From: a bacterium
GTDB lineage: Bacteria; Patescibacteriota; Patescibacteriia; JACQRZ01
Length of the DNA: 64,000 nt
Assembly (NCBI GenBank): GCA_023246095.1
Contig: JAHFJA010000003.1
Span: 10,782 to 74,781, forward strand
Reading direction: 5' to 3'
Within the stretch, counting starts at the first letter, position 1; each line of letters starts with the position of its first letter. The notes beneath the pieces are model-generated. The model searched no databases and was not told the origin of the DNA. It saw only the letters and a program-made list of their open reading frames with translations. The position numbers and the translations under genes were made by a program. Positions 140 through 55,380 of the stretch are shown here, one piece after another.

Positions 140-2455
140 ATGGCAATCACCAAGACATATAACGTAAAAGGAATGCACTGCGCATCGTGTGCAGGTATGA
201 TTGAAAAAACGTTTAAAAAGATAGAAGGAGTGAAGTCTGCTGAAGTGAATTATGGGACGGAAACGGCGAAAGTCTCATTTGATGATAAACAAGTAACTCA
301 TGAACACCTTACAAAGAGTATTGAACCTCTCGGATATTCTTTGACTGATTCTGAATCAACAAAGCATACTATGACTGCGGCTGAAATGGGTATGTCGGAG
401 AGTGAACATGCAGCGCATCTAGGTCTTTCTCAAACAAAAAAAGAGAAACTTGCTGAGTTGTCGGCCATGAAGCGCACGGTTATATCTATAATCCCTCTTG
501 TGTTGTTCAGTGTATTTGTCATGGCTTGGGAGATTGGCGGGCAGTTTGGTATTTTCACTGAGGTTCCGTATTTCTGGAAGGAGTTTTTTCATCACACACT
601 TCCTTTGATGGCGACGTATGTTCTCTTCGTTGTTGGGAAACCATATTTGCTGGGGTTATACCGTTTTCTTCGTTATGGCAAAGCGAATATGGATACATTG
701 ATTGGAATTGGCACATCGGTAGCGTATCTCTATAGTGTGATCATTACTTCGTTTGAGGATACGTTTCGACCATTTCTCAATGTTGATATTACTTACTACG
801 ACGTGACGATTATTGTCATTGCATTTATTTCGCTGGGAAAATATCTTGAGGTGCGATCGAAACTCAAGACGGGGGACGCAATAGAAAAGTTACTTGGTCT
901 GCAAGCGAAAACAGCCCTGGTTATCCGTGAAGGGAAAGAAGTTGAGCTACCAATTGGTCAGGTTATAAAAGGCGATTTTATCATCGTGAAACCGGCTGGA
1001 AAAATCCCCGTTGATGGAGTACTTACCGAGGGGTCATCGTATGTGGATGAATCGATGGTGACAGGGGAATCTATTCCCACACAAAAGGAATTAGGGAGTA
1101 CTGTAGTTGGTGGAACAATTAACACTTCGGGGTCGTTTGTGTTCAGAGCTACCAACATTGGTTCAGAAACATTGCTGGCAAATATTATAAAAATGGTGGG
1201 AGAGGCACAGGGTAGCAAGGCGCCTATTCAAGCTCTTGCCGATAAAATTTCAAGTATTTTTGTCCCTGCTGTGTTGGTGATTGCGTTTGTGACATTGGGC
1301 GTATGGCTATTGATCGGGACGTCGTATCTTGGATTCTCGCAGGCTTTGTCATACGGGCTTGTGTGCTTTGTAGGTATTTTGGTTATCGCATGTCCATGCG
1401 CGCTGGGTTTAGCCACACCAACGGCGATTATTGTTGGAGTAGGAAAAGGAGCACGAGAAGGTATTCTTATTAAAGATGCCGCAACCCTTGAGACACTCCA
1501 CAAAGCTAGTGTTGTAGTAGTTGATAAGACAGGCACCATCACACAAGGAAAGCCGGAACTTACTTCTATAAAGAATTATTCAGACAAGACTGACGTTGAG
1601 CTGATTTCGATTCTTGCTTCGCTTGAAAAAAAGTCCGAACACCCTATTGCGCATGCAATTGTTTCGTATGCGGATGAAAAAAAGATTTCGCTTGCTTCGG
1701 TAAAAAGTTTTGATGCCATTAAAGGGAAGGGTTTGCAGGGGGTGATAGGAAACACTGAGTATTATGCAGGAAATCTCGCATTGATCCAAAGTCTGAAACT
1801 TGATTTTAATATTCGTGATCTAGAAAAAGATACACAGGAAGGAAAGACACCGGTTATCGTGGCGACGACAAAGAAATTGTTGGGTGTGGTAATGGTGGCC
1901 GACGCAGTAAAGCCGGAAGCTGTTGAGGCCGTGAAGAGTCTTCATAAGCAAGGTATTAAAGTGGTTATGTTGACTGGTGACAATAAAAATACTGCGAAGT
2001 ATATCGCAGAGCAGGTAGGTATCGATGAAGTGTTTGCTCAAGTAACTCCGGAACAAAAATTAAAAAAAATAAAGGAGCTTCAAGCGGGAGGAGCGATTGT
2101 AGCAATGGCGGGTGACGGAGTCAATGATGCTCCCGCACTTGCGCAGGCTGATATAGGTATTGCAATGGCCACTGGTACTGATGTTGCAATTGAATCGGCA
2201 GGGATTACGTTGCTTCATGGAGATATCTCAAAATTGGTGAAGGCAATTAATCTTTCAAAGATCACCATGCGGGGGATAAAGCAAAATCTTTTTTGGGCAT
2301 TTGCATATAATGTTATTGGTATTCCTATTGCGGCAGGAATTCTGTATCCGTTTTTTGGGGTATTGCTCTCCCCTGTCTTTGCTGGTCTTGCCATGGCGCT
2401 TTCTAGTGTATCGGTAGTGGGAAATTCTTTGCGCATTAAAACTAAGAAATTGTAA
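140..2455 (+). CDS. copA: Copper-translocating P1B-type ATPase
   Basis: N-terminal HMA domain (GMHCASCAGMIEKTF), CPC transmembrane motif (CPCALGLATP), phosphorylation site DKTGTIT, hinge GDGVNDAPAL; 771 aa. Confidence 0.92.
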   Translation: MAITKTYNVKGMHCASCAGMIEKTFKKIEGVKSAEVNYGTETAKVSFDDKQVTHEHLTKSIEPLGYSLTDSESTKHTMTAAEMGMSESEHAAHLGLSQTKKEKLAELSAMKRTVISIIPLVLFSVFVMAWEIGGQFGIFTEVPYFWKEFFHHTLPLMATYVLFVVGKPYLLGLYRFLRYGKANMDTLIGIGTSVAYLYSVIITSFEDTFRPFLNVDITYYDVTIIVIAFISLGKYLEVRSKLKTGDAIEKLLGLQAKTALVIREGKEVELPIGQVIKGDFIIVKPAGKIPVDGVLTEGSSYVDESMVTGESIPTQKELGSTVVGGTINTSGSFVFRATNIGSETLLANIIKMVGEAQGSKAPIQALADKISSIFVPAVLVIAFVTLGVWLLIGTSYLGFSQALSYGLVCFVGILVIACPCALGLATPTAIIVGVGKGAREGILIKDAATLETLHKASVVVVDKTGTITQGKPELTSIKNYSDKTDVELISILASLEKKSEHPIAHAIVSYADEKKISLASVKSFDAIKGKGLQGVIGNTEYYAGNLALIQSLKLDFNIRDLEKDTQEGKTPVIVATTKKLLGVVMVADAVKPEAVEAVKSLHKQGIKVVMLTGDNKNTAKYIAEQVGIDEVFAQVTPEQKLKKIKELQAGGAIVAMAGDGVNDAPALAQADIGIAMATGTDVAIESAGITLLHGDISKLVKAINLSKITMRGIKQNLFWAFAYNVIGIPIAAGILYPFFGVLLSPVFAGLAMALSSVSVVGNSLRIKTKKL

Positions 2456-2459
2456 CTAT

Positions 2460-3479
2460 ATGAATACATACACTTTCTATGTAAGCGGAATGCATTGCAA
2501 GTCATGTGTTAGCATGATTGACAGCGAATTATCGGAACTTCCCTATATCACTGAAGCAAAATCAAATCTTTCAACGTGTTCAGTGGATGTTGCGGGAGAA
2601 TTTGGTGATAAGTCTCCAGAGAATATTGCACAAGAGCTGACTCAAGTGATTGCAAAACATGGATATCGTTGTTCAGTAGAAAAACAAACACCACCAAAAA
2701 ATTGGTCAGATTTCAAAATGGCAATCCCTGTTGCTGTTGTATTTTTGATATTGTTCGTCGTTTTACAGAAGGTGGGTCTTGTAAATTTTGTAAATACTAG
2801 TAGTGTGTCATATGGAACATCGTTTGCAATTGGTCTTATTGCCTCACTTTCTTCTTGTCTAGCTGTGGTGGGTGGATTGCTGCTTTCGATGTCGGCTACG
2901 TTTGCAAAAGAAGGCGACAAGATGAAGCCACAGTTATTGTTCCACGCGGGTCGTCTTATATCGTTTTTCATTCTTGGCGGCGTAATCGGTGCAGTCGGGG
3001 CTGTGTTTACCTTGAGCCCTGCTGCTACGTTTACTGTGGGTATCATTGTTGGCGTAGTGATGCTCATCCTGGGTATTAATCTTCTGGATGTATTTCCATG
3101 GGCAAAGCGTTTACAGCCTTCAATGCCGAAATTTATAGCAAAACGAGCTCAAGGCGTATCGAAACTGAATCATACCTTCACGCCATTTCTCGTTGGGATT
3201 GTCACATTTTTTCTCCCGTGTGGTTTTACACAATCAATGCAATTATATACACTCACCACGGGAAGCTTTTTGAAAGGGGGATTGACTATGGGGGCGTTTG
3301 CATTGGGAACATTGCCGGTACTTGCGTTGATCAGTTTCAGCTCGTTCAGTATTCAGAATAGTTCAAAGGCGGGCGTATTTTTCAAAACAGCAGGATTGAT
3401 TGTAATTTTATTCGCTTTGTTTAATCTCATTAATAGTCTTGTGGTGATCGGTTTAATACCACCTCTCTTTAATATCTAG
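2460..3479 (+). CDS. HMA (heavy-metal-associated) domain fused to a DsbD_2/CcdA-like or TauE-like multi-TM membrane domain
   Basis: N-terminal MHCKSCVSMID metal-binding motif; about 8 predicted TM helices with conserved Cys in TM helices (SSCLAV, FLPCGF); 5 bp downstream of copA. Confidence 0.55.
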   Translation: MNTYTFYVSGMHCKSCVSMIDSELSELPYITEAKSNLSTCSVDVAGEFGDKSPENIAQELTQVIAKHGYRCSVEKQTPPKNWSDFKMAIPVAVVFLILFVVLQKVGLVNFVNTSSVSYGTSFAIGLIASLSSCLAVVGGLLLSMSATFAKEGDKMKPQLLFHAGRLISFFILGGVIGAVGAVFTLSPAATFTVGIIVGVVMLILGINLLDVFPWAKRLQPSMPKFIAKRAQGVSKLNHTFTPFLVGIVTFFLPCGFTQSMQLYTLTTGSFLKGGLTMGAFALGTLPVLALISFSSFSIQNSSKAGVFFKTAGLIVILFALFNLINSLVVIGLIPPLFNI

Positions 3480-3489
3480 TTCTATCTCT

Positions 3490-3906
3490 ATGTCTCAAGA
3501 AAAGGCGCCAAAATCTACAAAGTTATTTATCATTGCTTTTGTTTCTGTCGTGGTGGTGATGGGCGCGGGGATATTTTTTACACTGAATAAAAAAACGGAA
3601 AGTAACGCAGTGGCAGTGAATAATACCAATATAAGTGGTGATAAACAAATTATTGAAATACATGCGAAAGGTGGATACCAACCTCGCAAGAGTGTTGCAA
3701 AGGCGGGTGTGCCTACCGTCGTACGATTTGTCACCAAAGGGACATTCGATTGTTCGTCAACGATAAGTATTCCAAGTATGAAAATAAGCCGAAGTCTTCC
3801 TCCTTCAGGGTCGACCGATATTGATTTGGGTACGGTCGCAGCAGGGGTGTTGCAAGGAACATGCGGAATGGGTATGTATCCTTTTGAGATTGATTTTCAG
3901 AGTTAA
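3490..3906 (+). CDS. Membrane-anchored cupredoxin-like (Cupredoxin_1-type) copper-binding protein
   Basis: N-terminal TM helix, then AKGGYQPRK...VPTVVRFVTKG...C...C..MGMYPFE, a pattern typical of small cupredoxin-fold proteins in cop operons. Confidence 0.5.
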   Translation: MSQEKAPKSTKLFIIAFVSVVVVMGAGIFFTLNKKTESNAVAVNNTNISGDKQIIEIHAKGGYQPRKSVAKAGVPTVVRFVTKGTFDCSSTISIPSMKISRSLPPSGSTDIDLGTVAAGVLQGTCGMGMYPFEIDFQS

Positions 3907-3975: not shown

Positions 3976-4024
3976 GTCCTCGCCATGGGGTAGCATGGAA
4001 TTATGTACATTTTGGAGGAATAAA

Positions 4025-4282
4025 ATGGGAAAACCATTACATGAGAGTCTAGTATCGGTAATAGAGAATGCTAAACCGGAAGGACTGAAAAGTCTTGCAG
4101 CGCTTATCGTCGCTACTAACATTCCCAAAAATCATGTTGCTATATCTGAAGCCTGGCAGATCCGTGTCAGCGAACTTGAGTTGAGACCCGACGTATACGG
4201 GAATATTCCGCAGGTTCTTGTGGAAAAGGCAGAAGAAGCAAGACAAGCACACCCAAAAAATCAGGAGGTGACCACTCACTAA
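4025..4282 (+). CDS. Hypothetical small protein (85 aa)
   Basis: ORF with GGAGG Shine-Dalgarno 7 nt before the ATG at 4025; the listed ORF start at 3995 lacks an SD. Confidence 0.45.
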   Translation: MGKPLHESLVSVIENAKPEGLKSLAALIVATNIPKNHVAISEAWQIRVSELELRPDVYGNIPQVLVEKAEEARQAHPKNQEVTTH

Positions 4283-4289
4283 AAGTAAC

Positions 4290-4324
4290 AACAGTATTAA
4301 TAAGTGCACGACCTAAGGTACGGC
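4290..4324. terminator. Bidirectional intrinsic terminator between convergent genes
   Basis: AATAAGTGCacgacctaaggtacgGCACTTATT hairpin flanked by A/T runs. Confidence 0.6.
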
Positions 4325-4359
4325 ACTTATTTATTTACAGTACATACCAATTGTTTGAC

Positions 4360-5751
4360 TTACCCCCGCTTTACGCATTTTTGATACAAGTTTTTAAACA
4401 TTCCTTTTGGATCGTACTTTGTTTTTAGTGCATCATAATCCTTTTTATTATAGAGCTGCCAGAATTCGTTTTCGGGATAGTATGAGGATGAGTAAAGGGA
4501 TTTCTTTCCGCCCAGTTCTTTCACTTTGTTTTCGATGAGCCGGTTGTAATGCCCTTCTTCTTTCTCTGACGCTACCGAATCCCAAAAACCAAAGTTTATA
4601 TAGAGCTGTTTTGGTTTGACAGCAAATAAACTAAAAATATTTTCAGAAGGTGTGGTGGGACACGTCCATACTGGTTTAATGCCGATCTCGCGATGAAAGA
4701 AGTCCATGAATTCGGGAGCATGTTCAATAGGAATTTCGACATCCTGGATGATTGATTCTCTTTTTCCGTTAATCGCTGACAAAAGGTTCGTTATTTTATA
4801 CTGGGTCGCAAGTTTCTTTATTTTCCAATACGTCGTAGATCGGAGGAGACGAGGAGTTGCAAGAAAACGAATGAGGGGATTTTGTGCACCAAATACACGG
4901 GAGCACCAAAACCAGTCAGTATCCCATCTCCATATATAATCATGGGTGGTTAGATAGTCTTCTTTTTTTTGGAGGATTGATCGGTAGTATATACCCATGT
5001 AGGTATAGTTACTGACCTGAGGTGCGGTGTCGACAAATTGTCCGATACTCAAATAGTACACCCCGCGATCGAACGCTACACCGTCGATAAAATCAACAAC
5101 GTCATGAGACTTGCCAGATCGATTACATACATCTTTTATTGAATCGAAAAATAATGCCGGATCGGTGAAAGAAGAATGGGTGACGTGAACATATTTTTTT
5201 ATCGGGATGAGGGCGACAGCGAGTATTAGTGCGTATCCGAGAGTGCCGTATGAATTGGGAAAACCAAAAAATAGATCGCGATTTTCATTGTTTGGCGAAC
5301 ATGTCCGTACTATGCCGTCTCCACAGAGAATTTCCATCTCTTGTACTGTCTCATGGACAAATCCATAACGGAACGATGTTGCTTCAATACCAACCCCCGT
5401 GACCGCACCGCCGACAGTGATAGATTTTAGTTCCGGCACGACTGTCGGCATGAGATTGTAAGGCAGGGTTTGTTTCACGAGCTCTTCATAGGTGGTCATC
5501 CCTTCGACGTACGCAATTCGGTTTGTGGGATCGACAGAAACAACTCGATTCAAATTACCGAGATTGAGTTTGTGTATACTTCCTTGAGCGCGATCACGAA
5601 ATAAGTTGGATGTTTTTTTTCCGCCAATAGCAACAGAAGTCCCCGATGTCCGGTGTTTAATAATTTCAGAAAATTCTTGTACTGCTAATTCTTTTTTTGA
5701 TTCGTATTGCTGTGGCGTGTCCATCTCTTGATGAGCATTTTGTTCGTCCAT
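4360..5751 (-). CDS. FAD-linked oxidoreductase (PCMH-type FAD_binding_4 fold; TmsA/BfaA- or DHCR24-like)
   Basis: N-terminal FAD-binding region (VAIGGKKTSN...VGGAVTGVGIEATSFRYGFVHETV...EILCGDGIV...NRDLFFGFPNSYGTLG); start placed at internal Met 5751 because the longer ORF would overlap the upstream gene. Confidence 0.7.
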   Translation of the reverse strand: MDEQNAHQEMDTPQQYESKKELAVQEFSEIIKHRTSGTSVAIGGKKTSNLFRDRAQGSIHKLNLGNLNRVVSVDPTNRIAYVEGMTTYEELVKQTLPYNLMPTVVPELKSITVGGAVTGVGIEATSFRYGFVHETVQEMEILCGDGIVRTCSPNNENRDLFFGFPNSYGTLGYALILAVALIPIKKYVHVTHSSFTDPALFFDSIKDVCNRSGKSHDVVDFIDGVAFDRGVYYLSIGQFVDTAPQVSNYTYMGIYYRSILQKKEDYLTTHDYIWRWDTDWFWCSRVFGAQNPLIRFLATPRLLRSTTYWKIKKLATQYKITNLLSAINGKRESIIQDVEIPIEHAPEFMDFFHREIGIKPVWTCPTTPSENIFSLFAVKPKQLYINFGFWDSVASEKEEGHYNRLIENKVKELGGKKSLYSSSYYPENEFWQLYNKKDYDALKTKYDPKGMFKNLYQKCVKRG

Positions 5752-5758
5752 AGTGTAT

Positions 5759-6886
5759 CTATCTGATAGATTCGTAACCACTTCGTACTCCGCCTTTAGA
5801 ATAAACAATCTGCCACAATTGATTTCGTCGTGAGCGGAAACTGCCGGCGCAGCATAGTAAGTAATATTTCCACATGCGATAGAATCTATCATTAAAGTGA
5901 TCTGACTTGATGGTTGGCCAGTTGCGCTCAAAATTTTCATACCATGCCATCAGGGTTTTGTCGTAGTTGGTGCTCAGGTTATGCCAATCCTCCATCACAA
6001 ATAATCGTTCTGCTGCCTTTGAAAGTTGTGCAATCGACGGAAGCATTGAATTTGGGAAAATATATTTTTCAATCCATGGATCGGTGCCGGTGACTGACTT
6101 GCTTCCACCGATAGTGTGAAGGAAAAATATGCCATCTTGCTTGAGGCAGCGATGCGCAAGTTCCATGAATCCTCGGTAGTTGCGATATCCCACATGTTCA
6201 GCCATACCGATCGATACAACCTTATCGAATACACCGGTAGCTTCGCGGTAATCAGAAAGGATGAACTTTACATCAAGACCCTTTCCTTTTTCTTTTGCAT
6301 ACGCGACCTGCTCTTTCGAAATGTTATAGCCGGTAACTTTCACCCCATAGTTTTTGGCAGCAAAACGAGCGAATCCCCCCCAACCACAGCCGAGTTCCAA
6401 GACCGTCTCGCCGGGTTTTAACATGGCTTTTTTGCAGATCAGGTGCAGTTTATCTTCCTGGGCCTTATTGAGGTCTTTTGCTTCTTTCCAGTAGCCACAG
6501 GTATATTGCATGTTGGGATCCAACATTTTTTCATAAAAGTCATTTCCGAGGTCATAATGCTGCATCGCAACCTTGGTTGAGCGCGCTTTTGTTTGCATGT
6601 TAAGCAAATGTGCTTTGGGTACAAGGAGAAGCGTTTTTAAATCAACATTTACTTGTTTTTCGATATTAGGAACCGAAAGGACTTTATCAAAAAATTGATC
6701 GAGAGCGGGGACATCCCACCATCCATCCATATATGACTCACCAAGGGCTAGTGATCCTTGGGATAAAATACGATGGTAAAATGATTCATTGTTAATCTGA
6801 ATATCCCACGGCTTTCCTCCATTGATTGTTATCCCTGCTAAAGAGAGGATCTCTTGTGCCTTGTCTTGAAAAACACTGTTTGGCAT
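5759..6886 (-). CDS. Cyclopropane-fatty-acyl-phospholipid synthase family SAM-dependent methyltransferase (Cfa/TmsB/BfaB-like)
   Basis: CFA_synthase-family layout with SAM motif VLELGCGWGGFARFAAKNYGVKVTGYNISKEQ and downstream DVKFILSDYRE...SIGMAEHVG. Confidence 0.8.
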   Translation of the reverse strand: MPNSVFQDKAQEILSLAGITINGGKPWDIQINNESFYHRILSQGSLALGESYMDGWWDVPALDQFFDKVLSVPNIEKQVNVDLKTLLLVPKAHLLNMQTKARSTKVAMQHYDLGNDFYEKMLDPNMQYTCGYWKEAKDLNKAQEDKLHLICKKAMLKPGETVLELGCGWGGFARFAAKNYGVKVTGYNISKEQVAYAKEKGKGLDVKFILSDYREATGVFDKVVSIGMAEHVGYRNYRGFMELAHRCLKQDGIFFLHTIGGSKSVTGTDPWIEKYIFPNSMLPSIAQLSKAAERLFVMEDWHNLSTNYDKTLMAWYENFERNWPTIKSDHFNDRFYRMWKYYLLCCAGSFRSRRNQLWQIVYSKGGVRSGYESIR

Positions 6887-7007
6887 ACAGTAAATAATAT
6901 GAATCGGCTAGTACACGTAGTGTACCTTAGATTCTGTAAATATCAAGAGGGAGACAGCAAAAAAGCGGCAATCATGGTACCGCTTTTTTGTGGGGAAACG
7001 AGAGGGT

Positions 7008-7361
7008 TTATTGTGTGATTGGTTTTTGATCAACACTTCCTTTGAGTAGGGCGTTGATAATTGAGAGCACAAGACTAAATAACAGTGCCCACCAAAATCC
7101 GTTTACTGAAAAACCTGGAACGATTTGAGCGGCAAGTAAAATCATAAGTGCATTCACGACGAATGTAAATAGCCCGAGCGTGAGGATGTTGAGCGGGAGG
7201 GTGATTAGGAGGACAAGGGGACGGATCAGGGCGTTAATAAGCCCGAGAACTATCGCAAGTACCAACGCGGTAAGGAAATTATTCACATCGACGCCCGGTA
7301 AAATATAGGCGGCTACGAGGATGGCAAGCGCAGAAATAAGCCAGTTAAGGAGAATGGCCAT
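7008..7361 (-). CDS. DUF360/phage-holin-4-like small membrane protein (YvlD-type)
   Basis: 117 aa, 4 TM, internally repeated LPG..VNGFW / LINALIRP motifs. Confidence 0.5.
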   Translation of the reverse strand: MAILLNWLISALAILVAAYILPGVDVNNFLTALVLAIVLGLINALIRPLVLLITLPLNILTLGLFTFVVNALMILLAAQIVPGFSVNGFWWALLFSLVLSIINALLKGSVDQKPITQ

Positions 7362-7384
7362 AAAGAGGAAAGATATTAAGAATA

Positions 7385-8275
7385 ATGATATTGTATTACA
7401 ATAAGTATACTCTTTATTCCCCTATGTCCCCAATGAAACGTCAACCCTACTCAGGACCGCATTATACCCCCATGATTCTCGCATTGGTTGCAATGGGGAT
7501 ACTGGTAGGCGCGTATTTCTTTTTTCAAAAAACTCCGGCTAAAGAAGACGTGTCGACCGCGAACTCCGAACAAGTGGCGCCATTAATCCCTGTTCCTACT
7601 ACCGCCGTAGTACCTGTTATCGAACCGCCAAAAGAAGAACCTATCGTAATTGAGAAAAAAACGACAGAAGAGAAGAATCCTGAGTTTGGCATCACAACCG
7701 CATATCCGGCTCTCAAAAAAGGGGACGTGAGTGTTGATGACATCAATGCGACGATACGAATTTTCGTTGATGGCACCATAAAACAATTTAAAGACGATTT
7801 TAATAATGCAAAAAAAGAAGGAAGTACGGGTAACCCTGATGAGACATGGAGTTTGACGATTGGTTATGATACTCCCTACCAATCTTCAGATTATATTTCA
7901 CTTGAGTTATCGGTCGATAGTTATGAAGGTGGTGCCCATCCAAATGGAACAGTAAAAACGTTTGTCGTTGATGTGAAGAATCAGAAAATACTTTCCCTTG
8001 ATGATATCCTTATCTCAAATACGTCGCTCAAAGATCTTTCCGCACTTGCGATTGCAGATTTAAAAAAGCGGAATGTATCAGATGATGATTGGATTACAAG
8101 CGGTGCATCTGGCAAAACAGAAAATTATCAGGCGTGGTACCTCTCTTCAAACGGTTTGACGATATTATTTTCATCATATCAAGTCGCGCCGTATGCAGCG
8201 GGGGTACAAGAAGTGACGATTTCCCCATTAAAGTTATCGGATTTAATTAAGCCAGAATATATCCTGACCAAGTAG
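7385..8275 (+). CDS. Membrane-anchored DUF3298/DUF4163 (RsiV-like) domain protein
   Basis: N-terminal TM helix; C-terminal SLELSVDSYEGGAHPNGTVKTFVVD motif typical of DUF3298; exact start uncertain (Met at 7385, 7424 or 7433). Confidence 0.5.
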   Translation: MILYYNKYTLYSPMSPMKRQPYSGPHYTPMILALVAMGILVGAYFFFQKTPAKEDVSTANSEQVAPLIPVPTTAVVPVIEPPKEEPIVIEKKTTEEKNPEFGITTAYPALKKGDVSVDDINATIRIFVDGTIKQFKDDFNNAKKEGSTGNPDETWSLTIGYDTPYQSSDYISLELSVDSYEGGAHPNGTVKTFVVDVKNQKILSLDDILISNTSLKDLSALAIADLKKRNVSDDDWITSGASGKTENYQAWYLSSNGLTILFSSYQVAPYAAGVQEVTISPLKLSDLIKPEYILTK

Positions 8276-8331
8276 AGAATGTATTTTATTTAAGCGTTGC
8301 AGTACACGTGGTAAATTTTTTAATAGTTCAA

Positions 8332-8340
8332 TGCTATAAT
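8332..8340 (+). promoter_or_regulatory. Extended -10 element TGCTATAAT upstream of ABC exporter copy 1
   Basis: TGnTATAAT 10 nt upstream of the ATG at 8350; same element and flanks duplicated at 10156. Confidence 0.45.
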
Positions 8341-8349
8341 GAGCATACT

Positions 8350-10128
8350 ATGACATCTTCTTCGTCGGCTACAGATTCAAAAAGAGAATATTCTACTGTT
8401 GAACTGCTTCGTGATTTGTGGGGCCTCATGAAAGGTAAACGGTTTACCTTTGTCTTAGGATCACTAATGAAACTCTTCGCAAGAGTTTTGTCTTTGTATC
8501 CCGTCTACGCATTTGCGAAAATCGTATCATTCTTTAGTGGATTTCATGCAGGGATATCCCTCCAACCAGTATGGACGTATCTTGCTTTGTGGTTTCTCAG
8601 TATGATCGCAAGAATATTTTTTGGATACTTTTCAAATTGGCTGGTGTTCCACATTACGGTGCGAACTTGGTTGAATGGTGAAGTGGCTGCCCTGTATCAT
8701 GTACTGCTCCTCGATATTTCATGGCACGAGCACGAGAACACGGGTAACAAATTAAAGCGTATTAATCGCGGCGCAATGGCGTTTGATGGACTGCTTCGAC
8801 TTTGGCATAATCAAGTACTTACGGTGGTCGTAAGCTTTGTCGGTGTGATTACTATAATTGCAATGATTGATATTGTTGCCGCAGGAAGTATCGCTCTTTA
8901 TCTTATCGTCTACTACGTAGTGGCTTCGCGTCTCACTGTAAAAACAAGGACGGCTTCACGAGCGGTAAATATTGCAGAGGAAGAGGCGAGTGGACTCAGT
9001 TTTGAAGTGTTAAACAACGTAAGAACGGTCAAAGTACTGGGCATGACTAATGGGTTCAAATCACATATACAAAAAGCGGCTAATAATATATTTGAAAAAT
9101 TTCACGGAAGAGTATTTTGGTTTCAACTAAGAGGAGGTATCCTCGATTCGATCTCCTCGATATTTACTATCGTTACTTTGGTCTACATTGTGTATGGGAT
9201 ATCTCAAGGCCGTTATAATGTAGGCTTTCTCGTACTATTTTTTGGGTACTTTGAACAAGTGACAAACGCAATTGATCGTGTTGCGGAGCTTGCGCAGGAT
9301 TATCTGCTCATGCAACAAAATATTGTGAGGCTAAAAGAGCTGACCGACATTCCTGTCGGCATTGATGAGGATACTGGCAAGCGATCATTTCCAAAAAACT
9401 GGCAAACACTTACGCTCTCTAACGTCTCATTTCACTATCGTGACAATGAAGTTTTGAAAAATATAACGCTTGAAATTAATCGTGGAGAAAAGATCGGTAT
9501 TGTAGGTCTTTCGGGGGCAGGAAAGTCGACGTTGTTTAAATTATTGCTCAAAGAATACGAAGATTATACCGGAGATATTATGGTCAACGATGTGGCGCTC
9601 AAGAATATCCGCCGTAGTGCATACCTTGATCATATCGCTGTCGTTATGCAAGAAACAGAAGTGTTTAATTTTTCTCTCAAGGAGAATATCGTGATGGCAA
9701 ATCCTTCAGCGAGACGTGATAAGGCATTTCTTTCTCGGGCTATGCAGACTGCTCATGTGACGGATTTTATATCTAAACTGCCGGAAGGGGTTGACACTCT
9801 TATTGGTGAAAAGGGCGTGAAGCTATCTGGCGGAGAAAAACAACGCCTTGGTATTGCCCGCGCGATTTTTAAAAAGCCGGAGATACTTTTCATGGATGAG
9901 GCAACTTCACATCTCGATTTGGAGTCTGAAGAAAAGATTCGTGATTCGCTGCACAAGTTTTTCAAAGACATTACTGCTGTCGTAATTGCACACCGCCTCA
10001 CGACAGTAAAACTGATGGATCGGATTATCGTTTTGGAAGGTGGACGCATTATCGAACAAGGGACGTTCGATCAGCTCATGAAACAAGAAGGACGATTTTA
10101 CACTCTTTGGCAGAAACAGCAGTTGTAG
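8350..10128 (+). CDS. ABC transporter, fused permease/ATP-binding half-transporter (exporter type), paralog 1
   Basis: 6-TM N-terminal domain; Walker A GLSGAGKST, signature LSGGEKQRLGIARA, Walker B ILFMDEATSHLD, H-loop IAHRL. Confidence 0.88.
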   Translation: MTSSSSATDSKREYSTVELLRDLWGLMKGKRFTFVLGSLMKLFARVLSLYPVYAFAKIVSFFSGFHAGISLQPVWTYLALWFLSMIARIFFGYFSNWLVFHITVRTWLNGEVAALYHVLLLDISWHEHENTGNKLKRINRGAMAFDGLLRLWHNQVLTVVVSFVGVITIIAMIDIVAAGSIALYLIVYYVVASRLTVKTRTASRAVNIAEEEASGLSFEVLNNVRTVKVLGMTNGFKSHIQKAANNIFEKFHGRVFWFQLRGGILDSISSIFTIVTLVYIVYGISQGRYNVGFLVLFFGYFEQVTNAIDRVAELAQDYLLMQQNIVRLKELTDIPVGIDEDTGKRSFPKNWQTLTLSNVSFHYRDNEVLKNITLEINRGEKIGIVGLSGAGKSTLFKLLLKEYEDYTGDIMVNDVALKNIRRSAYLDHIAVVMQETEVFNFSLKENIVMANPSARRDKAFLSRAMQTAHVTDFISKLPEGVDTLIGEKGVKLSGGEKQRLGIARAIFKKPEILFMDEATSHLDLESEEKIRDSLHKFFKDITAVVIAHRLTTVKLMDRIIVLEGGRIIEQGTFDQLMKQEGRFYTLWQKQQL

Positions 10129-10155
10129 GTGAGTGTAGTTATCATTATAGTACGA

Positions 10156-10164
10156 TGCTATAAT
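10156..10164 (+). promoter_or_regulatory. Extended -10 element TGCTATAAT upstream of ABC exporter copy 2
   Basis: Duplicate of the 8332 element inside an approximately 60 nt nearly identical block. Confidence 0.45.
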
Positions 10165-10173
10165 GATCATACT

Positions 10174-11955
10174 ATGGCATCTTCTTCATCTGCTACAGAT
10201 TCAAAAATAGAATATCCAACACGTGCGCTTGTTCGAGATTTGTGGATTGCATTAAAAGGCAAACTCCTGTTATTTATTATTGGTTCATGTTTGCGATTGT
10301 GCGCAACCGTGTTGTGGTTATACCCCGCTTTTGCGTTTTCGCGTGTCGTTTCAGAATTAAGTCATGGCATTTCCTCATCTACGATATGGTGGGTTTGGTT
10401 TTTTTTACTATCATGGGTGGGTGTATTAACGGTGGCGAATACTCTCAACTTTATCGCAAACAATATTGTTTTTCGCATTACTAATGAGATTAAACTGAAG
10501 ACAGAAGTTTCAGCACTTGAACACTTACTTCATCTGGACTCAGCATGGCACGAAAAAGAAAATGCTGGAAATAAAATTAAAAAAATTGATCGAGGTTCGA
10601 ATTCGATGGGCGATATACTGGAGATTTGGTACAATCAAATACTACAAATTCTCGTAAGTTTTGTCGGTGCCTTGATCATTATTTCGGCGTTTGATTTTAC
10701 GGTGACAGGAATAATGCTTGGCTTTATAGCGATTTATTACTTTGTATCAATGAAACTTACGAAAGCAACCCGTGCTGCAGTGAAGGACGCAAATATTGCT
10801 GAGGAGGAGTTAGGCGGACTGGAGTACGAGGCGGTAGATAATGTACGCACCATAAAAGTGTTGGGTATGAATCGATCGATGATGCGTCTCGTTTTAAAAT
10901 CAGTTGATGTACTATACAAAAAAATAATGAGGCGCATGTTTTGCTTTACGCGTCGTACATATGTTCTCGATAGTATCTCTGTAATATTCCGTACTCTCAG
11001 CCTGGCATACATTATCATTGGTATTATTCATGGCACTAAGGACGTCGGATTCCTCGTTCTTTTTTTTGGATATTACGGTTCGATTGAATCAGCGGTTGTT
11101 CGTTTTGCTGAAATGACGCAGAATTACATGATTGGTAGACAAAGTATTACTCGCCTCAAAGAAATTACTAATACACCGATAAATATAGATGCAGAAATAG
11201 GTAAGAAGCAATTCCCTAAGCAATGGAAGCGTCTGGCGCTTTCTCATGTCACTTTTCGCTATCACGATAATATTGTGCTCAATGATATTTCTCTTGAGAT
11301 CAATCGTGGAGAAAAAATCGGCATTATAGGTCTTTCGGGTGCAGGAAAATCAACGCTTTTTAAGCTCCTTCTTAAGGAGTATGAAGATTTCGAAGGTGAC
11401 ATTTTTGTGGATAATATTTCGTTGAAGACGATACGTCGTAGTGATTATCTCCTTCACGTCGCAGCGGTAATGCAAGAGACAGAAGTATTTAACTTCACGT
11501 TGAAGGAAAATATTATGATTGCAAATCCTTCTGTTCGTCACGGTGATAAGGTATTTCTTGATCGTGCTATGAAGACGGCGCACGTAACTGATTTCATTAA
11601 AAAATTACCTGAAGGTGCAGATACTATGATTGGTGAAAAGGGAGTTAAACTTTCGGGCGGGGAAAAACAGCGTCTTGGTATTGCTCGTGCAATATTTAAA
11701 AGACCAGAGATACTGTTTTTGGACGAAGCAACGTCGCACCTTGATTTGGAGTCAGAAGAAAAGATCAGAGATTCATTGCATAAGTTTTTTAAAGATATCA
11801 CTGCGGTTGTAATAGCGCATAGGTTGACTACCATAAAAGAAATGGATCGAATCATTGTCCTTGAGGGTGGTCGTATCATAGAACAAGGAACATTTGATCA
11901 GCTTATGAAACAAGAAGGGCGATTTTACACTCTTTGGCAGAAACAGCAGTTGTAG
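10174..11955 (+). CDS. ABC transporter, fused permease/ATP-binding half-transporter, paralog 2 (tandem duplicate)
   Basis: Same motifs (GLSGAGKST, LSGGEKQRLGIARA, LDEATSHLD); N-terminal MASSSSATDSK and C-terminal ...QEGRFYTLWQKQQL identical to copy 1. Confidence 0.88.
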   Translation: MASSSSATDSKIEYPTRALVRDLWIALKGKLLLFIIGSCLRLCATVLWLYPAFAFSRVVSELSHGISSSTIWWVWFFLLSWVGVLTVANTLNFIANNIVFRITNEIKLKTEVSALEHLLHLDSAWHEKENAGNKIKKIDRGSNSMGDILEIWYNQILQILVSFVGALIIISAFDFTVTGIMLGFIAIYYFVSMKLTKATRAAVKDANIAEEELGGLEYEAVDNVRTIKVLGMNRSMMRLVLKSVDVLYKKIMRRMFCFTRRTYVLDSISVIFRTLSLAYIIIGIIHGTKDVGFLVLFFGYYGSIESAVVRFAEMTQNYMIGRQSITRLKEITNTPINIDAEIGKKQFPKQWKRLALSHVTFRYHDNIVLNDISLEINRGEKIGIIGLSGAGKSTLFKLLLKEYEDFEGDIFVDNISLKTIRRSDYLLHVAAVMQETEVFNFTLKENIMIANPSVRHGDKVFLDRAMKTAHVTDFIKKLPEGADTMIGEKGVKLSGGEKQRLGIARAIFKRPEILFLDEATSHLDLESEEKIRDSLHKFFKDITAVVIAHRLTTIKEMDRIIVLEGGRIIEQGTFDQLMKQEGRFYTLWQKQQL

Positions 11956-25421: not shown

Positions 25422-28400
25422 TTATTTTTTGGGTGACCTCCGGCGTATATACATACTGCTTGCGAGGAATACTATACTAAAGAGTGAGACAACGCCAATT
25501 TGAATTAAGGGAATCGGTTTGTCTGATGCAGTGAGTGTCAATGTAGAGTTGTCATTTTTTTGGGGAGTGGATGGGGTCTGGGGGTTGGCGATGTTTGTTG
25601 TTGTGAGGATGAGATCATCTTTCGTGCGGGGGAGGATTCGATAGCCTGTGGATGTTTGACTGACAATGCCCGTTGCTTGTAGAGTACTCGCTTTGTCGAT
25701 TTTCATTCTGGTGATACCAGTTGAGGTTTTGACATACACTCGCGCTTCATCTGTTCCATCATCGATGTAAATACTGGGCCATTGGGTCTTTACCACCTCT
25801 CCTTTGATTGTTACCAGACTGCCTTCGTACTCTTCACCGACATCAGTGATTGAAATGGGGTGAGCGATGGGAGGCGGGCCATGACTTATAAATCGGATTG
25901 TATTATCCTTACCAACCTTGATTCTCGCTTCATCACTGATTTGTGATCGGACACCAGTAAGCTGTACAGTATCACCGATGAGTAACTTTGGCATCTGGTT
26001 TTTTGAAACATATATTTGCATACCCGAGCCGGCCAAGTAGAAAATGTTTGCACCGAGCGAACCTGGGGTGGACGAGACTACCCCTTTTACACTTACCGAC
26101 GTGTCCAAAGGAAGGTCGCGCGCCTGAGCGAGAGTAGTTTGGATTATATCTGGCGTCGATTTTTTGCTGGTTGCCTTTGATGCGGTCGTTTTTGAGGAAG
26201 CGGTGACTGTATTCGATTTGGAAAGGGTGCTTTGTGGTCCTGAAAGTTCGATGTCCGACATTGGGGATGCATTACTTGAATTTTGCTTGCCAGAAGTAAC
26301 GCTGGTTGACCAAACAAAATCTCCTTCTTTTGTGCGCATGAGACTTTGGGCTTCGGGAGCGTCTTCATACGATACAACATCCATGAAATCACCTTGGCTG
26401 TTATACAGAGTGACAGTGTCAGCGGCATTGCGTAATTGAATTTTATTGGCCGTAGGAGTTAAAACTAACAATGCTCCGGGGTCGATGCGGGATCCGGCAG
26501 GAAAGGTATATGATTTTTTCCCAAGCTGATAGGTGACACGCCAGCCAGACACATCGATGAAAACATTGGAAATATTTGTCAGCTCGATGAATTCATTGGT
26601 GTCCTTTCCTTTGGGGTTTGGCGCGATTTCATTGATAACGACTGGTGAAATACCCGCTATGCTTTGGGGGATTTCTTCAGGGGGTAGCTTGCTCATGGGT
26701 TGTGGTGAAACTGTTTGAGAAGCTGCTTCGATAACGATCGTCTTAGTCGCTTTCTTTTCATTTGTCGGATCTTTGACGGTGAGGCTTACTTTGTATCGAC
26801 CTGCCGTCGAATAATGATGACTGAGTTGCACGCTATCTCCTTGTTGTCCGTCGCCAAAATCCCAATGATAGGTCAGCGGATCTTGTTCAGCGTCTGTCGT
26901 ATCTGACGCATCGAACATTAACTCTTCTAAAATGGCACCACTGTTGGGCATTTCCATATCAGGATCAGGTGGTTCATTGGCAAGTGTTTTGATGTTTGCC
27001 ACGCCGGGGGTGGGAGTAGTAGTCCAGCCGTTTTCTTGATCGCTGAAAAAAGCATATGAATGTCCTTGGATTGTTTTTTCTTTATACGCGAGTGTTGCAT
27101 TCGGTTTTTCACCGTTGGGTTGATAGAGCGTTACTGAATCGCCTCCTGTGTTTTTAAGTGCAAGACCAGTTACAGGGCGTTCAAAAATAAAATAGGATTT
27201 TGCTTTGATTGTTGTATCTTTAAGTTTCTTGTTATCGACGATGTATTTGCGACCCGCTGCGTTTACGATTTCCCAACCGAGAAGGTCGATATCTTTATCT
27301 CCTTTATTGTAGAGTTCAATAAATTCTGTTTTGGAATCAACGCCGATCGGGTCAGGGAGAAGCTCTGAAATGATTATATCTTTAATAAATGGCGCGGTAG
27401 CATCATCTGCTGGGATTGCGGGGTCGATAATGACATTTGAACTTCCTTTTGTCGGTTTGGTAGTGACTTGAAAATCAAATGCATTGTTGTAACTATTGTG
27501 GCCATCTTTGAGACGTGCAGTTGAAGATGGGTCAGCGGCTTTTGGTGCATTATTGAGGGTGTTGCCGTCATCCCAGTTACCAAAAGACACGTCGTCAACG
27601 GTGATGCCGTTGGGATCTTTGAGAATAATGAGATCACCCGCGTTATTCAGTTTCCCTTTCGGATTTTCAACAATAAAAAAGCGATTGTTTGCGCTGGATC
27701 CAATTTTCCCCGAAAGATTTGTTTTTGTGTTTGATCCATCTTCTATCGACCATCCCGTAAGGTCGATATCTTTTATTTGAGGATTATACAATTCTATCCA
27801 TTCGACATCGTCGTCGGTAGGGTCTGAGACAAATTCGTTTATGTACATATCCCCTCGCGCGTAATAGGTCGCTTGTGGTTGTGCGGGTACAGCGGGAGGT
27901 GTCGTTGGGGGTACGACGACAGGAGGAGGGTCTGCTGGGGGTGGATCAACGACTATGGGTGGCGATATGGGAGCACTTGCCGCATTGATCGTGCCGATGG
28001 TATTGCCGCTCGCATGTTCTTTCCAGTTGGTGGCAGTATAATCTGTTTTTGTCGCGTCGACGCGTTCCAATGAATGAGTCGGAGCCGCGATGTATGCAAA
28101 CTGTTCGATGAATGCCCCTGTGTTATCTTTCAATGCGATTGATTCTCCTGCTTCCGTGAGCGTTGTCCACGCGCTGTCGATAATGGTACCTGTGAATGAT
28201 GGATAATCAGCAGCAGTGTTTGCAGCGACATCGGCGATGATCGCATATTCACCAGGCTCAATAGTCATGTCTCCTTGGAAAGCGGAGAGTCCATGATTGG
28301 TGTCAGCTTCAAAAAATTTCCACCCGGTCATATCAACGGGTGCAGTACCTTTATTATATATTTCAAACCATTCGTGATCGGAATTTTCCGATGCACCGAT

Positions 28401-28502
28401 TTCGTTAATGACTATATCGGTTGTCGCTGCTCGGACAGGAGTAATAGTGATAGGTGAACTTATAAAAACAATGAGAAGTGCGAACGTAAAAGTTCGAGAC
28501 AT
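25422..28502 (-). CDS. Giant secreted, C-terminally membrane-anchored surface protein with 4 lamin-tail domains (LTD) and a PKD domain
   Basis: Signal peptide; four LTD signatures (INEI...EWFEIYNKG; EWIELYNPQ; EFIELYNKGD; EFIELTNIS); PKD motif WDFGDG...YSTAGRYKVSLTVKD; Pro-rich linker; C-terminal TM plus RRRSPKK. Confidence 0.7.
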   Translation of the reverse strand: MSRTFTFALLIVFISSPITITPVRAATTDIVINEIGASENSDHEWFEIYNKGTAPVDMTGWKFFEADTNHGLSAFQGDMTIEPGEYAIIADVAANTAADYPSFTGTIIDSAWTTLTEAGESIALKDNTGAFIEQFAYIAAPTHSLERVDATKTDYTATNWKEHASGNTIGTINAASAPISPPIVVDPPPADPPPVVVPPTTPPAVPAQPQATYYARGDMYINEFVSDPTDDDVEWIELYNPQIKDIDLTGWSIEDGSNTKTNLSGKIGSSANNRFFIVENPKGKLNNAGDLIILKDPNGITVDDVSFGNWDDGNTLNNAPKAADPSSTARLKDGHNSYNNAFDFQVTTKPTKGSSNVIIDPAIPADDATAPFIKDIIISELLPDPIGVDSKTEFIELYNKGDKDIDLLGWEIVNAAGRKYIVDNKKLKDTTIKAKSYFIFERPVTGLALKNTGGDSVTLYQPNGEKPNATLAYKEKTIQGHSYAFFSDQENGWTTTPTPGVANIKTLANEPPDPDMEMPNSGAILEELMFDASDTTDAEQDPLTYHWDFGDGQQGDSVQLSHHYSTAGRYKVSLTVKDPTNEKKATKTIVIEAASQTVSPQPMSKLPPEEIPQSIAGISPVVINEIAPNPKGKDTNEFIELTNISNVFIDVSGWRVTYQLGKKSYTFPAGSRIDPGALLVLTPTANKIQLRNAADTVTLYNSQGDFMDVVSYEDAPEAQSLMRTKEGDFVWSTSVTSGKQNSSNASPMSDIELSGPQSTLSKSNTVTASSKTTASKATSKKSTPDIIQTTLAQARDLPLDTSVSVKGVVSSTPGSLGANIFYLAGSGMQIYVSKNQMPKLLIGDTVQLTGVRSQISDEARIKVGKDNTIRFISHGPPPIAHPISITDVGEEYEGSLVTIKGEVVKTQWPSIYIDDGTDEARVYVKTSTGITRMKIDKASTLQATGIVSQTSTGYRILPRTKDDLILTTTNIANPQTPSTPQKNDNSTLTLTASDKPIPLIQIGVVSLFSIVFLASSMYIRRRSPKK

Positions 28503-55337: not shown

Positions 55338-55380
55338 ATGTCATGGATACAGTACGAAATTCGAGAATGATTGTCAATCA

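Follow-up and report, generated by a model that had tools for sequence, protein, structure and literature searches.

A Cfa/TmpB-type methyltransferase gene adjoining a BfaA-type reductase gene in a Patescibacteria MAG: a probable route to mid-chain methyl-branched acyl chains

Analysis of a 64,000-nucleotide stretch of contig JAHFJA010000003.1 (the window) identified an operon in which the gene of a SAM-dependent CMAS-family methyltransferase (MT) is followed by that of a BfaA/TmsA-type FAD oxidoreductase (OX). The operon probably converts phospholipid acyl chains in situ to saturated mid-chain methyl-branched chains. The substrate would be cis-monounsaturated chains carried by phospholipids that are already part of the membrane. 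MT would pass the SAM methyl group to the double bond, and the carbocation would give rise to an exocyclic methylene instead of a cyclopropane ring, after which OX would reduce the methylene via FAD, with NADPH as the donor by analogy with the BfaA of T. curvata. The predicted product is 10-methyl-16:0/18:0, or an 11-methyl chain from a delta-11 substrate. Chemistry of this kind would act on finished lipids and would therefore not need fatty-acid synthesis, so that a Patescibacteria cell could re-tailor the lipids that it scavenges.

The gene pair and its boundaries

The two genes lie on the same strand (Table 1). The MT stop codon (TAG, 5761-5759) is followed by the spacer and then by the OX start codon, an ATG at 5751, and both reading frames and the 7-nt gap are those of the original prediction. 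The spacer is too short to hold a promoter, as had also been claimed, and MT and OX should be co-transcribed. No canonical Shine-Dalgarno sequence was found before either gene, the spacer included. The long ORF of OX spans 4360-5940 on the minus strand, and translation from the internal ATG yields the 463-aa protein; the N-termini of homologues align with this ATG, in agreement with the internal methionine proposed earlier as the start. One public gene call uses a GTG at 5781, 30 nt upstream, which would give a protein of 473 aa and overlap the 3′ end of MT by 23 nt. MT and OX are genuine genes and not chance ORFs, because they match PF02353, NF008686, and PF01565 and have more than 8000 database homologues each. 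Antisense ORFs inside the genes (4706-4939 and 6116-6421, plus strand) were taken as spurious.

Upstream of the pair, a stem-loop (AAAAAAGCGGUA...UGCCGCUUUUUU; −17 kcal/mol, z = −4.77, equaled by 0 of 200 shuffles) sets the two genes apart from the holin-like gene. The promoter candidate, read from 6946 to 6919, has 9 of 12 consensus matches and lies in a region with no overall enrichment relative to shuffles. Downstream, the 80-nt region containing the second hairpin folds with an MFE of −18.7 kcal/mol (z = −2.2; an equally stable fold in 6 of 200 shuffles), and a T-rich tail is present on the plus strand only; this hairpin is possibly a bidirectional terminator. The expectation that no fatty-acid-synthesis genes would be visible holds for the 42 window ORFs scanned, none of which encodes such a protein. 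The nearest named relatives of the RuvB encoded in the window are from Ca. Uhrbacteria.

Table 1. Features of the MT-OX locus, in window coordinates
Feature	Position	Strand	Basis or remark
Hairpin between the OX stop and a convergent 95-aa ORF (3995-4282)	4299..4331		Operon downstream boundary
BfaA/TmsA-type FAD (PCMH fold) oxidoreductase (OX), 463 aa	4360..5751	-	Homology, motifs, AF2 model
7-nt intergenic spacer ATACACT	5752..5758	-	Sequence
SAM-dependent CMAS-family methyltransferase (MT), 375 aa, E. coli Cfa/Desulfobacter TmpB type	5759..6886	-	HMM, identity
Sigma-70-like promoter candidate TTGATA-16-TACACT	6919..6946	-	33 nt upstream of the MT start
Hairpin serving as terminator for the holin-like gene (7008-7361) upstream of MT	6955..6992	-	Operon upstream boundary

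The reductase and its conserved partner

OX is 47.6, 48.0, 46.3, and 44.5% identical to the BfaA proteins of T. curvata, R. opacus, M. smegmatis, and M. tuberculosis (Rv3719), respectively, in alignments of 425 to 445 residues with E values of 1e-126 to 1e-147. OX and the BfaA homologues align from one terminus to the other, are invariant at about 110 columns when the references are included, and share the motifs TSNLFR (residue 47), VVPELKSIT (104), WRWDTDWFWCS (274), and KSLYS (417). By these alignments, OX classifies as a full-length orthologue of the 10-methylene-fatty-acid reductase BfaA/TmsA. The methylene intermediate is the sole demonstrated substrate of BfaA (PMC5660069, PMC7791843), and the bfaAB operons of T. 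curvata, R. opacus, and M. smegmatis gave 10-methylstearate in E. coli (PMC7791843, Table 1). NADPH-dependent reduction of the 10-methylene to the 10-methyl group was shown for extracts of T. curvata BfaA only (PMC7791843, Table S3), and by analogy OX is predicted to be an NADPH-dependent reductase of an exocyclic methylene.

The OX match to PF01565 scores 55 bits, and the AF2 model (pLDDT 85.3, pTM 0.86) has a two-domain VAO/PCMH fold. A Foldseek search returned CKX and DprE1 as the nearest solved structures (TM 0.62 to 0.66). Only the FAD domain aligns with them by sequence (E about 1e-12), structural alignment gives 14 to 17% identity, and the score against the DprE1 model NF053785 (62 bits) is below the cut-off of 500. 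No DHCR24 entry was found among the PDB matches of OX. Matches of about 900 aa (P0396, P0399, P0423, P0425, and P0436), considered as Rosetta-stone fusions of MT and OX, turned out to be tandem BfaA-like duplications.

BfaA loci were present in at least 598 species genomes (GTDB), and synteny was compared across the best 80 of these loci; 4 of the 80 have cut flanks and 76 are informative. A complete, same-strand, adjacent CMAS methyltransferase gene is present in 66 of the 80 loci, and in 6 more the gene is truncated, frameshifted, or located within 1.4 kb. Overall, a CMAS methyltransferase is encoded no more than 1.4 kb from BfaA in 72 of the 76 informative loci, and the arrangements fall into three architectures. 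The 4 loci without one are gammaproteobacterial (L012, L038, L046, and L072), and their flanks, with translations judged by eye, hold no alternative partner; the ORFs there, e.g., those for transporter-like membrane proteins, seem to have no relation to lipid modification. The arrangement seen in the window, a Cfa/TmpB-like methyltransferase followed by BfaA, is found in Nitrospiraceae, Acidobacteriota, Chlamydiae, Verrucomicrobia, Patescibacteria, and DPANN archaea and is the architecture that extends across the most phyla among the 80 loci, whereas the reductase gene precedes the methyltransferase gene in all 31 BfaB-type loci. Across the three methyltransferase classes, BfaA proteins are 49 to 52% identical, compared with 30 to 32% for their partners. 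The reductase is far better kept than the methyltransferases, which suggests that one reductase serves three divergent lineages of methylene synthases. Three of the loci with the methyltransferase-first module are from Nitrospiraceae (L010, L022, and L037), and Nitrospira produces 11-methyl-hexadecanoic acid (PMC5516240). The copper sensitivity of a delta-Rv3719 mutant (PMC11925245) led us to look at the copper-resistance cluster adjacent to the pair; this adjacency is missing in a syntenic relative (L001) and in the other loci and was dismissed as coincidence.

The methyltransferase and its predicted product

MT scores 275 bits against PF02353 and 577 bits against the NCBIfam Cfa model NF008686 (cut-off, 400). 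It is 54.6 to 55.3% identical to the TmpB proteins of D. postgatei and D. toluolica over 366 to 369 residues and 51% identical to E. coli Cfa over the full length, while the 31 to 33% identity to BfaB covers the catalytic domain only. In an NJ tree on Kimura distances, MT, TmpB, and E. coli Cfa form a joint clade with a bootstrap value of 97.5%, within which the separation of E. coli Cfa from the BfaA-linked methyltransferases has a support of only 19%, and BfaB falls in a different clade; this tree resolves the three methyltransferase classes and not the placement of E. coli Cfa within its own clade. MT carries the SAM motif LELGCGWGG at residue 163, has the N-terminal domain of E. coli Cfa in full (alignment from residue 8), and retains the bicarbonate ligands C130, E230, H257, I259, and Y308, equivalent to C139, E239, H266, I268, and Y317 in the ligand list of E. 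coli Cfa (PMC3132707). BfaB and TmpB likewise retain these ligands (PMC7791843).

The original prediction had described the pair as a two-step module resembling TmsB/TmsA (BfaB/BfaA). This description is borne out by the 44 to 48% full-length identity of OX to four characterised BfaA/TmsA proteins and by the membership of MT among the lipid CMAS enzymes, and the two Pfam assignments proposed along with it (PF02353 and PF01565) were recovered. OX did not group with glycolate oxidase, D-LDH, or Mur-type enzymes, nor MT with non-lipid methyltransferases, which had been named as the groupings that would speak against the module. The likeness to BfaB/BfaA stands for the reductase but not for MT, which is of the Cfa/TmpB type (51 to 55% identity) and not BfaB/TmsB-like.

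The proven TmpB methylene synthases score 593 to 596 bits on NF008686, above MT, and therefore the Cfa name or model says nothing of the product. The TmpB proteins of D. postgatei and D. toluolica converted 31.5% and 11.8% of palmitoleate, respectively, to 10-methylene-palmitate in E. coli (PMC7791843). From its sequence, MT is predicted to be an acyl-chain methylene synthase.

Residues S138 and F238 of E. coli Cfa, which lie next to the bicarbonate ligands C139 and E239, correspond to T129 and A229 in MT. The combination of S138 and F238 is present in 7 of 7 solved cyclopropane synthases and also in MmaA4, though this enzyme is not a cyclopropane maker. All 8 BfaB and TmpB sequences from the supplement of PMC7791843, five of them from operons yielding product in E. 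coli, have T138 together with T, L, or M at 238, and T138 with a residue other than F at 238 occurs in 66 of 67 BfaA-linked methyltransferases. Both combinations are candidate signatures derived in this analysis and not established criteria. Among 11 close homologues of MT, BfaA adjoins all 4 proteins with T/C, T/M, or T/G at the two positions and none of the 7 with S/F, T/F, S/I, T/I, or T/V. The a priori rule that T138 and non-F238 predict linkage was wrong in 2 of the 11 cases (T/I and T/V), and its refined form is post hoc. The two positions are a target for mutagenesis and may control the cyclopropane versus methylene outcome.

It is unlikely that MT is an ordinary cyclopropane synthase and that OX is unrelated in role or acts on the cyclopropane product. 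Counting against a methylene product, none of the five bicarbonate ligands is missing from MT, and half of its residues are shared with a genuine cyclopropane synthase; its NF008686 score clears the cut-off, and stand-alone close homologues occur in CPR-like contexts (P0201 and P0236). However, proven methylene synthases score higher on this model, OX is orthologous to an enzyme known to act on the methylene intermediate alone, and the pairing is kept across phyla in nearly all informative loci. In addition, T129/A229 resembles the linked methyltransferases and not the S/F proteins, and in the stand-alone homologues the second position is F, I, or V.

The same chemistry could also be directed to another olefinic lipid, either isoprenoid or ether-lipid chains or host-derived free or lyso-lipids, which we regard as distinctly improbable. 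The pair is found on DPANN-assigned contigs, e.g., beside a wyosine-formation gene in Woesearchaeota (L084), Nanoarchaeota and Woesearchaeota names also appear among the homologue matches, and the lipids expected in DPANN archaea are isoprenoid ethers. The nearest folds of OX, CKX and DprE1, use prenyl-type substrates, and an enrichment in lysolipids has been reported for CPR bacteria (bioRxiv 10.1101/465690). Against this, MT has the complete N-terminal domain of E. coli Cfa, all characterised relatives of MT and OX act on fatty acyl chains (PMC7791843), and no isoprenoid genes adjoin the pair. The idea that OX is cytokinin oxidase/dehydrogenase-like, as hypothesised for its orthologue Rv3719, with MT an incidental neighbor, was rejected as hardly tenable: plant cytokinin oxidases are the best PDB matches of OX by sequence and fold, and Rv3719 was chosen as the M. 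tuberculosis protein closest to maize CKX (PMC11925245), but OX and CKX share 14 to 17% identity at a TM-score of about 0.63, the Rv3719 study saw no cytokinin-related phenotype (PMC11925245), the M. smegmatis, R. opacus, and T. curvata orthologues are proven in 10-methylstearate synthesis (PMC7791843), and the conserved linkage to a CMAS methyltransferase would be left unexplained.

A pair that methyl-branches phospholipid acyl chains would provide a concrete means for CPR cells to modify acquired membrane lipids without fatty-acid synthesis. The locus adds a third, hybrid architecture to the bfa and tmp routes for 10-methyl fatty acids, suggests that the PLFA biomarkers 10Me16:0 and 10Me18:0 are not lineage-specific, and points to a systematic annotation error in which BfaA partners carry the name cyclopropane synthase. 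We found no prior description in the literature of cyclopropane or methyl-branched acids in CPR/Patescibacteria, of 10-methyl acids in Wenzhouxiangella, or of BfaA outside actinomycetes. A broader proposal, which we consider tentative and rather doubtful, is that CPR and DPANN symbionts re-tailor host lipids via this operon and that a switch at 138/238 sets the product CMAS-wide. Ultra-small symbionts unable to make fatty acids would then turn stolen host lipids into oxidation-resistant methyl-branched chains, and the change from S138 to T, with F238 replaced by a small or sulfur-containing residue, would decide between cyclopropane and methylene. If true, some DPANN membranes would contain fatty-acyl lipids, a lipid-editing cassette would have been exchanged between the CPR and DPANN radiations, thousands of "Cfa" genes would be misnamed, and 10-/11-methyl fatty-acid biomarkers would be much less taxon-specific than assumed.

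Comparison with known systems

E. coli Cfa (PDB 6BQC) has the same N-terminal lipid-binding domain, SAM motif, five bicarbonate ligands, and NCBIfam model as MT. It differs in being encoded by a stand-alone gene and in having S138/F238, whereas MT combines T129/A229 with an obligate-looking reductase partner. An analogous logic is found in ERG6/SMT and DHCR24/DWF1, in which SAM-dependent methylation of an olefin yields an exocyclic methylene that is then reduced by a PCMH flavoprotein; the substrates of these enzymes are sterols and not acyl chains.

The bfaAB (tmsAB) system of the actinomycetes M. chlorophenolicum, M. smegmatis, and T. curvata (Machida 2017, PMC5660069; Blitzblau 2021, PMC7791843) has a reductase of the same family with the same motifs, and likewise consists of two adjoining genes of the same orientation, whose products, a CMAS methyltransferase and a FAD flavoprotein, act on membrane lipid acyl chains. 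It differs from the locus described here in the CMAS subfamily of the methyltransferase, in the gene order (bfaA-bfaB versus MT-OX), and in the host, an actinomycete versus a Patescibacteria MAG. In the tmpBA (ten-methyl-palmitate) system of Desulfobacter and Desulfobacula (Blitzblau 2021), the methyltransferase gene comes first, and TmpB is the closest characterised relative of MT, likewise with T at 138 and a residue other than F at 238. Its partner TmpA, which showed no activity in either E. coli or yeast (PMC7791843), is a geranylgeranyl-reductase-like flavoprotein unrelated to the BfaA-type partner of MT, and no TmpA-like gene lies near the window pair. By the published account, the bfa route of actinomycetes and the tmp route of Desulfobacter and gammaproteobacteria arose independently and use unrelated reductases (PMC7791843). 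Because its methyltransferase is of the Cfa/TmpB type while its reductase is of the BfaA type, the locus appears to be a hybrid of these two published systems.

Protein families of the gene pair

The minus-strand oxidoreductase (OX) aligns over essentially its entire length with four BfaA proteins, the 10-methylene fatty-acyl reductases of actinomycetes, at 47.6% identity for T. curvata, 48.0% for R. opacus, 46.3% for M. smegmatis, and 44.5% for M. tuberculosis (Rv3719); reference BfaA, BfaB, and TmpB sequences came from the supplement of Blitzblau et al. 2021 (PMC7791843). Mean column identity is 62% in an alignment of 11 sequences, two BfaA references among them, which shows the long invariant motifs TSNLFR, VVP[EQ]LK[ST]IT, WRWDTDWFWCS, and KSLYS. 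OX is thus a BfaA orthologue, in line with the original likening to a TmsA/BfaA-type flavoprotein. The AlphaFold model of OX (pLDDT 85, pTM 0.86) has a two-domain PCMH/VAO fold. Five proteins of about 900 aa (P0396, P0399, P0423, P0425, and P0436) each match OX twice; they were rejected as methyltransferase fusions because both halves are BfaA-like, and they represent tandem duplications with two FAD_binding_4 stretches and 27 to 32% identity to OX.

Profile searches placed both genes in the expected families. The methyltransferase (MT) matches PF02353 (mycolic acid/cyclopropane synthase, CMAS) with 275 bits and the NCBIfam equivalog NF008686 (cyclopropane fatty acyl phospholipid synthase) with 577 bits (cut-off 400), while the sole family match of OX is PF01565 (FAD_binding_4) and its NCBIfam profile search gave nothing above a cut-off. 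The earlier likening to TmsB/TmsA holds for the BfaA-type reductase and for a lipid CMAS methyltransferase, but MT is not BfaB-like: it is 31 to 33% identical to BfaB in the catalytic domain alone, versus 51% to E. coli Cfa and 55% to the TmpB of Desulfobacter/Desulfobacula across the whole protein, N-terminal domain included. The TmpB enzymes of D. postgatei and D. toluolica are 10-methylene-palmitate synthases by experiment, with 31.5% and 11.8% conversion in E. coli (PMC7791843). They score 593 to 596 bits on NF008686, above MT, and therefore cyclopropane and methylene makers can be told apart neither by the curated model nor by overall similarity. The name "cyclopropane fatty acyl phospholipid synthase," given to close MT relatives by several public sources, is uninformative on product. 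A neighbor-joining tree of 79 CMAS enzymes united MT, the other BfaA-linked Cfa-type methyltransferases, and Desulfobacter TmpB with E. coli Cfa at 97.5% bootstrap; the same tree does not settle where in this clade E. coli Cfa belongs.

Pairing across phyla and residues beside the bicarbonate ligands

When one genome per GTDB species was scanned with a sequence pattern, BfaA homologues turned up in at least 598 genomes. Among the best 80 loci, a complete CMAS methyltransferase is directly adjacent on the same strand in 66; in a further 4 the adjacent gene is frameshifted or cut by the contig end, in 2 it lies on the other strand or one gene away, and in 4 the relevant flank is missing. The last 4 (L012, L038, L046, and L072), all labelled gammaproteobacterial and one Ectothiorhodospiraceae, have solitary BfaA homologues: the 6 kb to each side contain no CMAS methyltransferase, and any partner must be encoded elsewhere.

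Three architectures were distinguished. Actinomycetota carry OX followed by a BfaB-type methyltransferase (31 loci), and Betaproteobacteria, including Burkholderiales, Casimicrobiaceae, Usitatibacter, and Pelomicrobium, carry a methyltransferase related to gammaproteobacterial TmpB followed by OX (14 loci). The window type, a Cfa/Desulfobacter-TmpB-type methyltransferase with OX, occurs at 21 loci plus the window, in Nitrospiraceae, Acidobacteriota (Solibacter, Bryobacteraceae, and Acidobacteriaceae), Chlamydiae, Thermodesulfobacteriota, Syntrophus, Verrucomicrobia, Wenzhouxiangella sediminis, Saccharibacteria, and other Patescibacteria; the methyltransferase mostly comes first, and the order is reversed in three Patescibacteria loci. 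Between architectures the reductases are 49 to 52% identical versus just 30 to 32% for the methyltransferases, which points to one conserved reductase combined with three divergent methyltransferase lineages, as would be expected if all three supply the same kind of substrate.

We searched for alignment columns invariant in four cyclopropane synthases (Cfa of E. coli, L. acidophilus, and A. aeolicus, and M. tuberculosis CmaA1) whose residue never occurs in eight BfaB/TmpB references. Exactly two columns were found, E. coli S138 and F238, the residues just before bicarbonate ligands C139 and E239 (ligands as listed in PMC3132707). PcaA, MmaA2, and CmaA2 likewise have S/F. Position 138 is T in all BfaB/TmpB references and in 67/67 BfaA-linked methyltransferases, and position 238 is T, L, M, C, A, or S in 66 of these 67. 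The sole exception is the downstream methyltransferase of L003 (Saccharibacteria, L003:1-3135), with F at the 238 equivalent; at this locus the BfaA homologue lies between two Cfa-type genes, and the second, on the other side of OX, is partial. MT itself carries T129 and A229, a signature that places it with the reductase-linked type, and its five bicarbonate ligands are all retained.

Both residue states occur among the 120 closest database homologues of MT, and the genomic context of 11 was examined. A BfaA homologue lies immediately downstream in all four with T/C (P0171, P0156), T/M (P0184), and T/G (P0209), and is absent there in those with S/F (P0202), T/F (P0201, P0236, P0235), S/I (P0182), T/I (P0225), and T/V (P0216). 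All 17 methyltransferase matches whose contig has the same length as that of an OX match have T plus C, A, or G. The rule stated beforehand, that T and non-F means linked, mispredicted the T/I and T/V cases among the 11. Absence of BfaA linkage does not equal a cyclopropane product, and MmaA4, which forms no ring product, is also S/F. Given these mispredictions and MmaA4, the signature is offered as a lead for mutagenesis and not as proof.

Gene organization and genomic setting

The coordinates and sequence agree with the earlier description of two minus-strand ORFs 7 nt apart, the gap running from the MT stop TAG to the internal ATG of OX. Homologue alignments also bear out this internal Met as the OX start, to within a few residues; one public gene call prefers a GTG at 5781, 30 nt upstream, giving 473 aa and a 23-nt overlap with the MT 3′ end. 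No Shine-Dalgarno sequence was recognisable at ATG 5751, GTG 5781, or the MT start. The flanking hairpins and candidate promoter mark the pair as a self-contained two-gene transcription unit.

Features of the window around and beyond the gene pair
Feature	Position	Strand	Remarks
MT ORF	5759-6886	-	375 aa; PF02353, NF008686
OX long ORF	4360-5940	-	526 aa; internal ATG at 5751; PF01565
Strong hairpin then T-run	6955-6992		terminator of upstream holin-like gene; z = -4.8
TTGATA-16-TACACT site	6946-6919		candidate promoter upstream of MT
Weaker hairpin	4299-4331		3′ of OX
CopA-type P1B ATPase	140-2455	+	HMA domain
HMA + DsbD_2 membrane protein	2460-3479	+	
Cupredoxin-like protein	3490-3906	+	
ABC exporter, two genes	8308-10128 and 10129-11955		one corresponding region in L001
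1026-aa protein	25422-28502	-	four Lamin-tail domains, PKD domain
tRNA-Arg(tct)	55263-55337	-	beside integrase gene
Tyrosine recombinase/integrase	55381-56364 (within 55263-56364)	-	directly adjoins tRNA-Arg(tct)

The window has an even GC content (38 to 46%) and genes typical of Patescibacteria (a split transketolase, a class-II aldolase, a large LTD/PKD surface protein, and many glycosyltransferases). Its RuvB is 70 to 73% identical to Candidatus Uhrbacteria proteins, and the nearest relatives of both MT and OX carry a Patescibacteria label. The Lamin-tail/PKD protein is a large surface protein of a kind typical for CPR episymbionts, and an integrase adjoining a tRNA usually marks an integrated mobile element. 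No fatty-acid-synthesis enzyme is encoded among the 42 scanned window ORFs (40 besides MT and OX), in keeping with the original remark that none was visible; CPR bacteria are reported to be generally unable to make membrane lipids (bioRxiv 10.1101/465690; PMC12455944).

Upstream of the pair lie a holin-like PF04020 protein, a PdaC/DUF3298 protein, and the ABC exporter (7008-8275, 8308-11955), a block syntenic in L001:1237-4745 at 46 to 80% amino-acid identity. L001, labelled gammaproteobacterial, is probably a mislabelled related Patescibacteria genome. A copper-handling cluster (140-3906, +) is convergent to the pair, and the longer public contig adds a CsoR-like repressor and a patatin-like phospholipase further upstream of it; this adjacency is not kept in L001.

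Predicted chemistry and comparison with known systems

With BfaA orthology, Cfa/TmpB clade membership, and conserved pairing, the originally proposed two-step methyl-branching module stands as a homology-based prediction: MT and OX quite probably methylenate and then reduce phospholipid acyl chains. Every step past those three findings we infer from sequence. The operon would be transcribed from upstream of MT, which would bind the bilayer and use SAM to methylate a cis double bond of a phospholipid acyl chain; the carbocation would yield an exocyclic methylene, and OX would reduce it to a saturated methyl branch via FAD, with NADPH as probable donor. T. curvata BfaA extracts require NADPH, the bfaAB operons of T. 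curvata, R. opacus, and M. smegmatis yield 10-methylstearate in E. coli (PMC7791843), and the methylene intermediate was demonstrated by Machida et al. (PMC5660069). The window-type module is present in genomes of Nitrospira, known for its 11-methyl-hexadecanoic acid (PMC5516240), which fits the predicted product class.

The foremost alternative, that MT is a true cyclopropane synthase and the flavoprotein is unrelated, is unlikely, being at odds with both the conserved pairing and the 138/238 signature. Somewhat less likely still is the same chemistry on another olefinic lipid, a reading suggested by DPANN occurrences of the pair. Fatty-acyl-modifying enzymes would be unexpected in archaea. 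In L084:3001-5438 (GCA_014729505.1, 84.6-kb contig WJJS01000009.1, assigned to Ca. Woesearchaeota), MT precedes OX (62% and 50% identical to the window proteins) directly upstream of a Radical_SAM + Wyosine_form gene, a type found in archaea and eukaryotes. Related entries are L002, P0013, P0156, P0164, and P0177, and several matches are labelled Nanoarchaeota or Woesearchaeota; CPR-DPANN gene transfer and mis-binning are alternative accounts of such pairs. A cytokinin-oxidase-like role for OX is very improbable: the solved structures nearest its model are plant cytokinin oxidases and DprE1 (TM 0.62 to 0.66, 14 to 17% identity; no BfaA-family structure was found by PDB sequence and fold comparison), and Rv3719, chosen as a candidate cytokinin oxidase by Yoo et al., showed on deletion in M. 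tuberculosis only mild copper hypersensitivity, the cytokinin-oxidase phenotype being unsupported (PMC11925245).

The two-step chemistry and the two protein families were known before, and the system is therefore not categorically new. What is new is the hybrid architecture and its breadth across phyla, together with the presence of the pair in CPR bacteria and DPANN archaea, both considered incapable of synthesising lipids for themselves. New, too, is the observation that methylene synthases hidden under Cfa annotation can be recognised by the reductase partner and possibly by the two active-site-adjacent residues. This homology-based prediction should be useful to lipid biochemists, users of methyl-branched PLFA biomarkers, and students of CPR/DPANN biology. 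Literature searches found no other description of the architecture. According to Blitzblau et al., bfa and tmp evolved independently, given their unrelated reductases and differing gene orders (PMC7791843); the window locus, absent from their description, is a hybrid of both.
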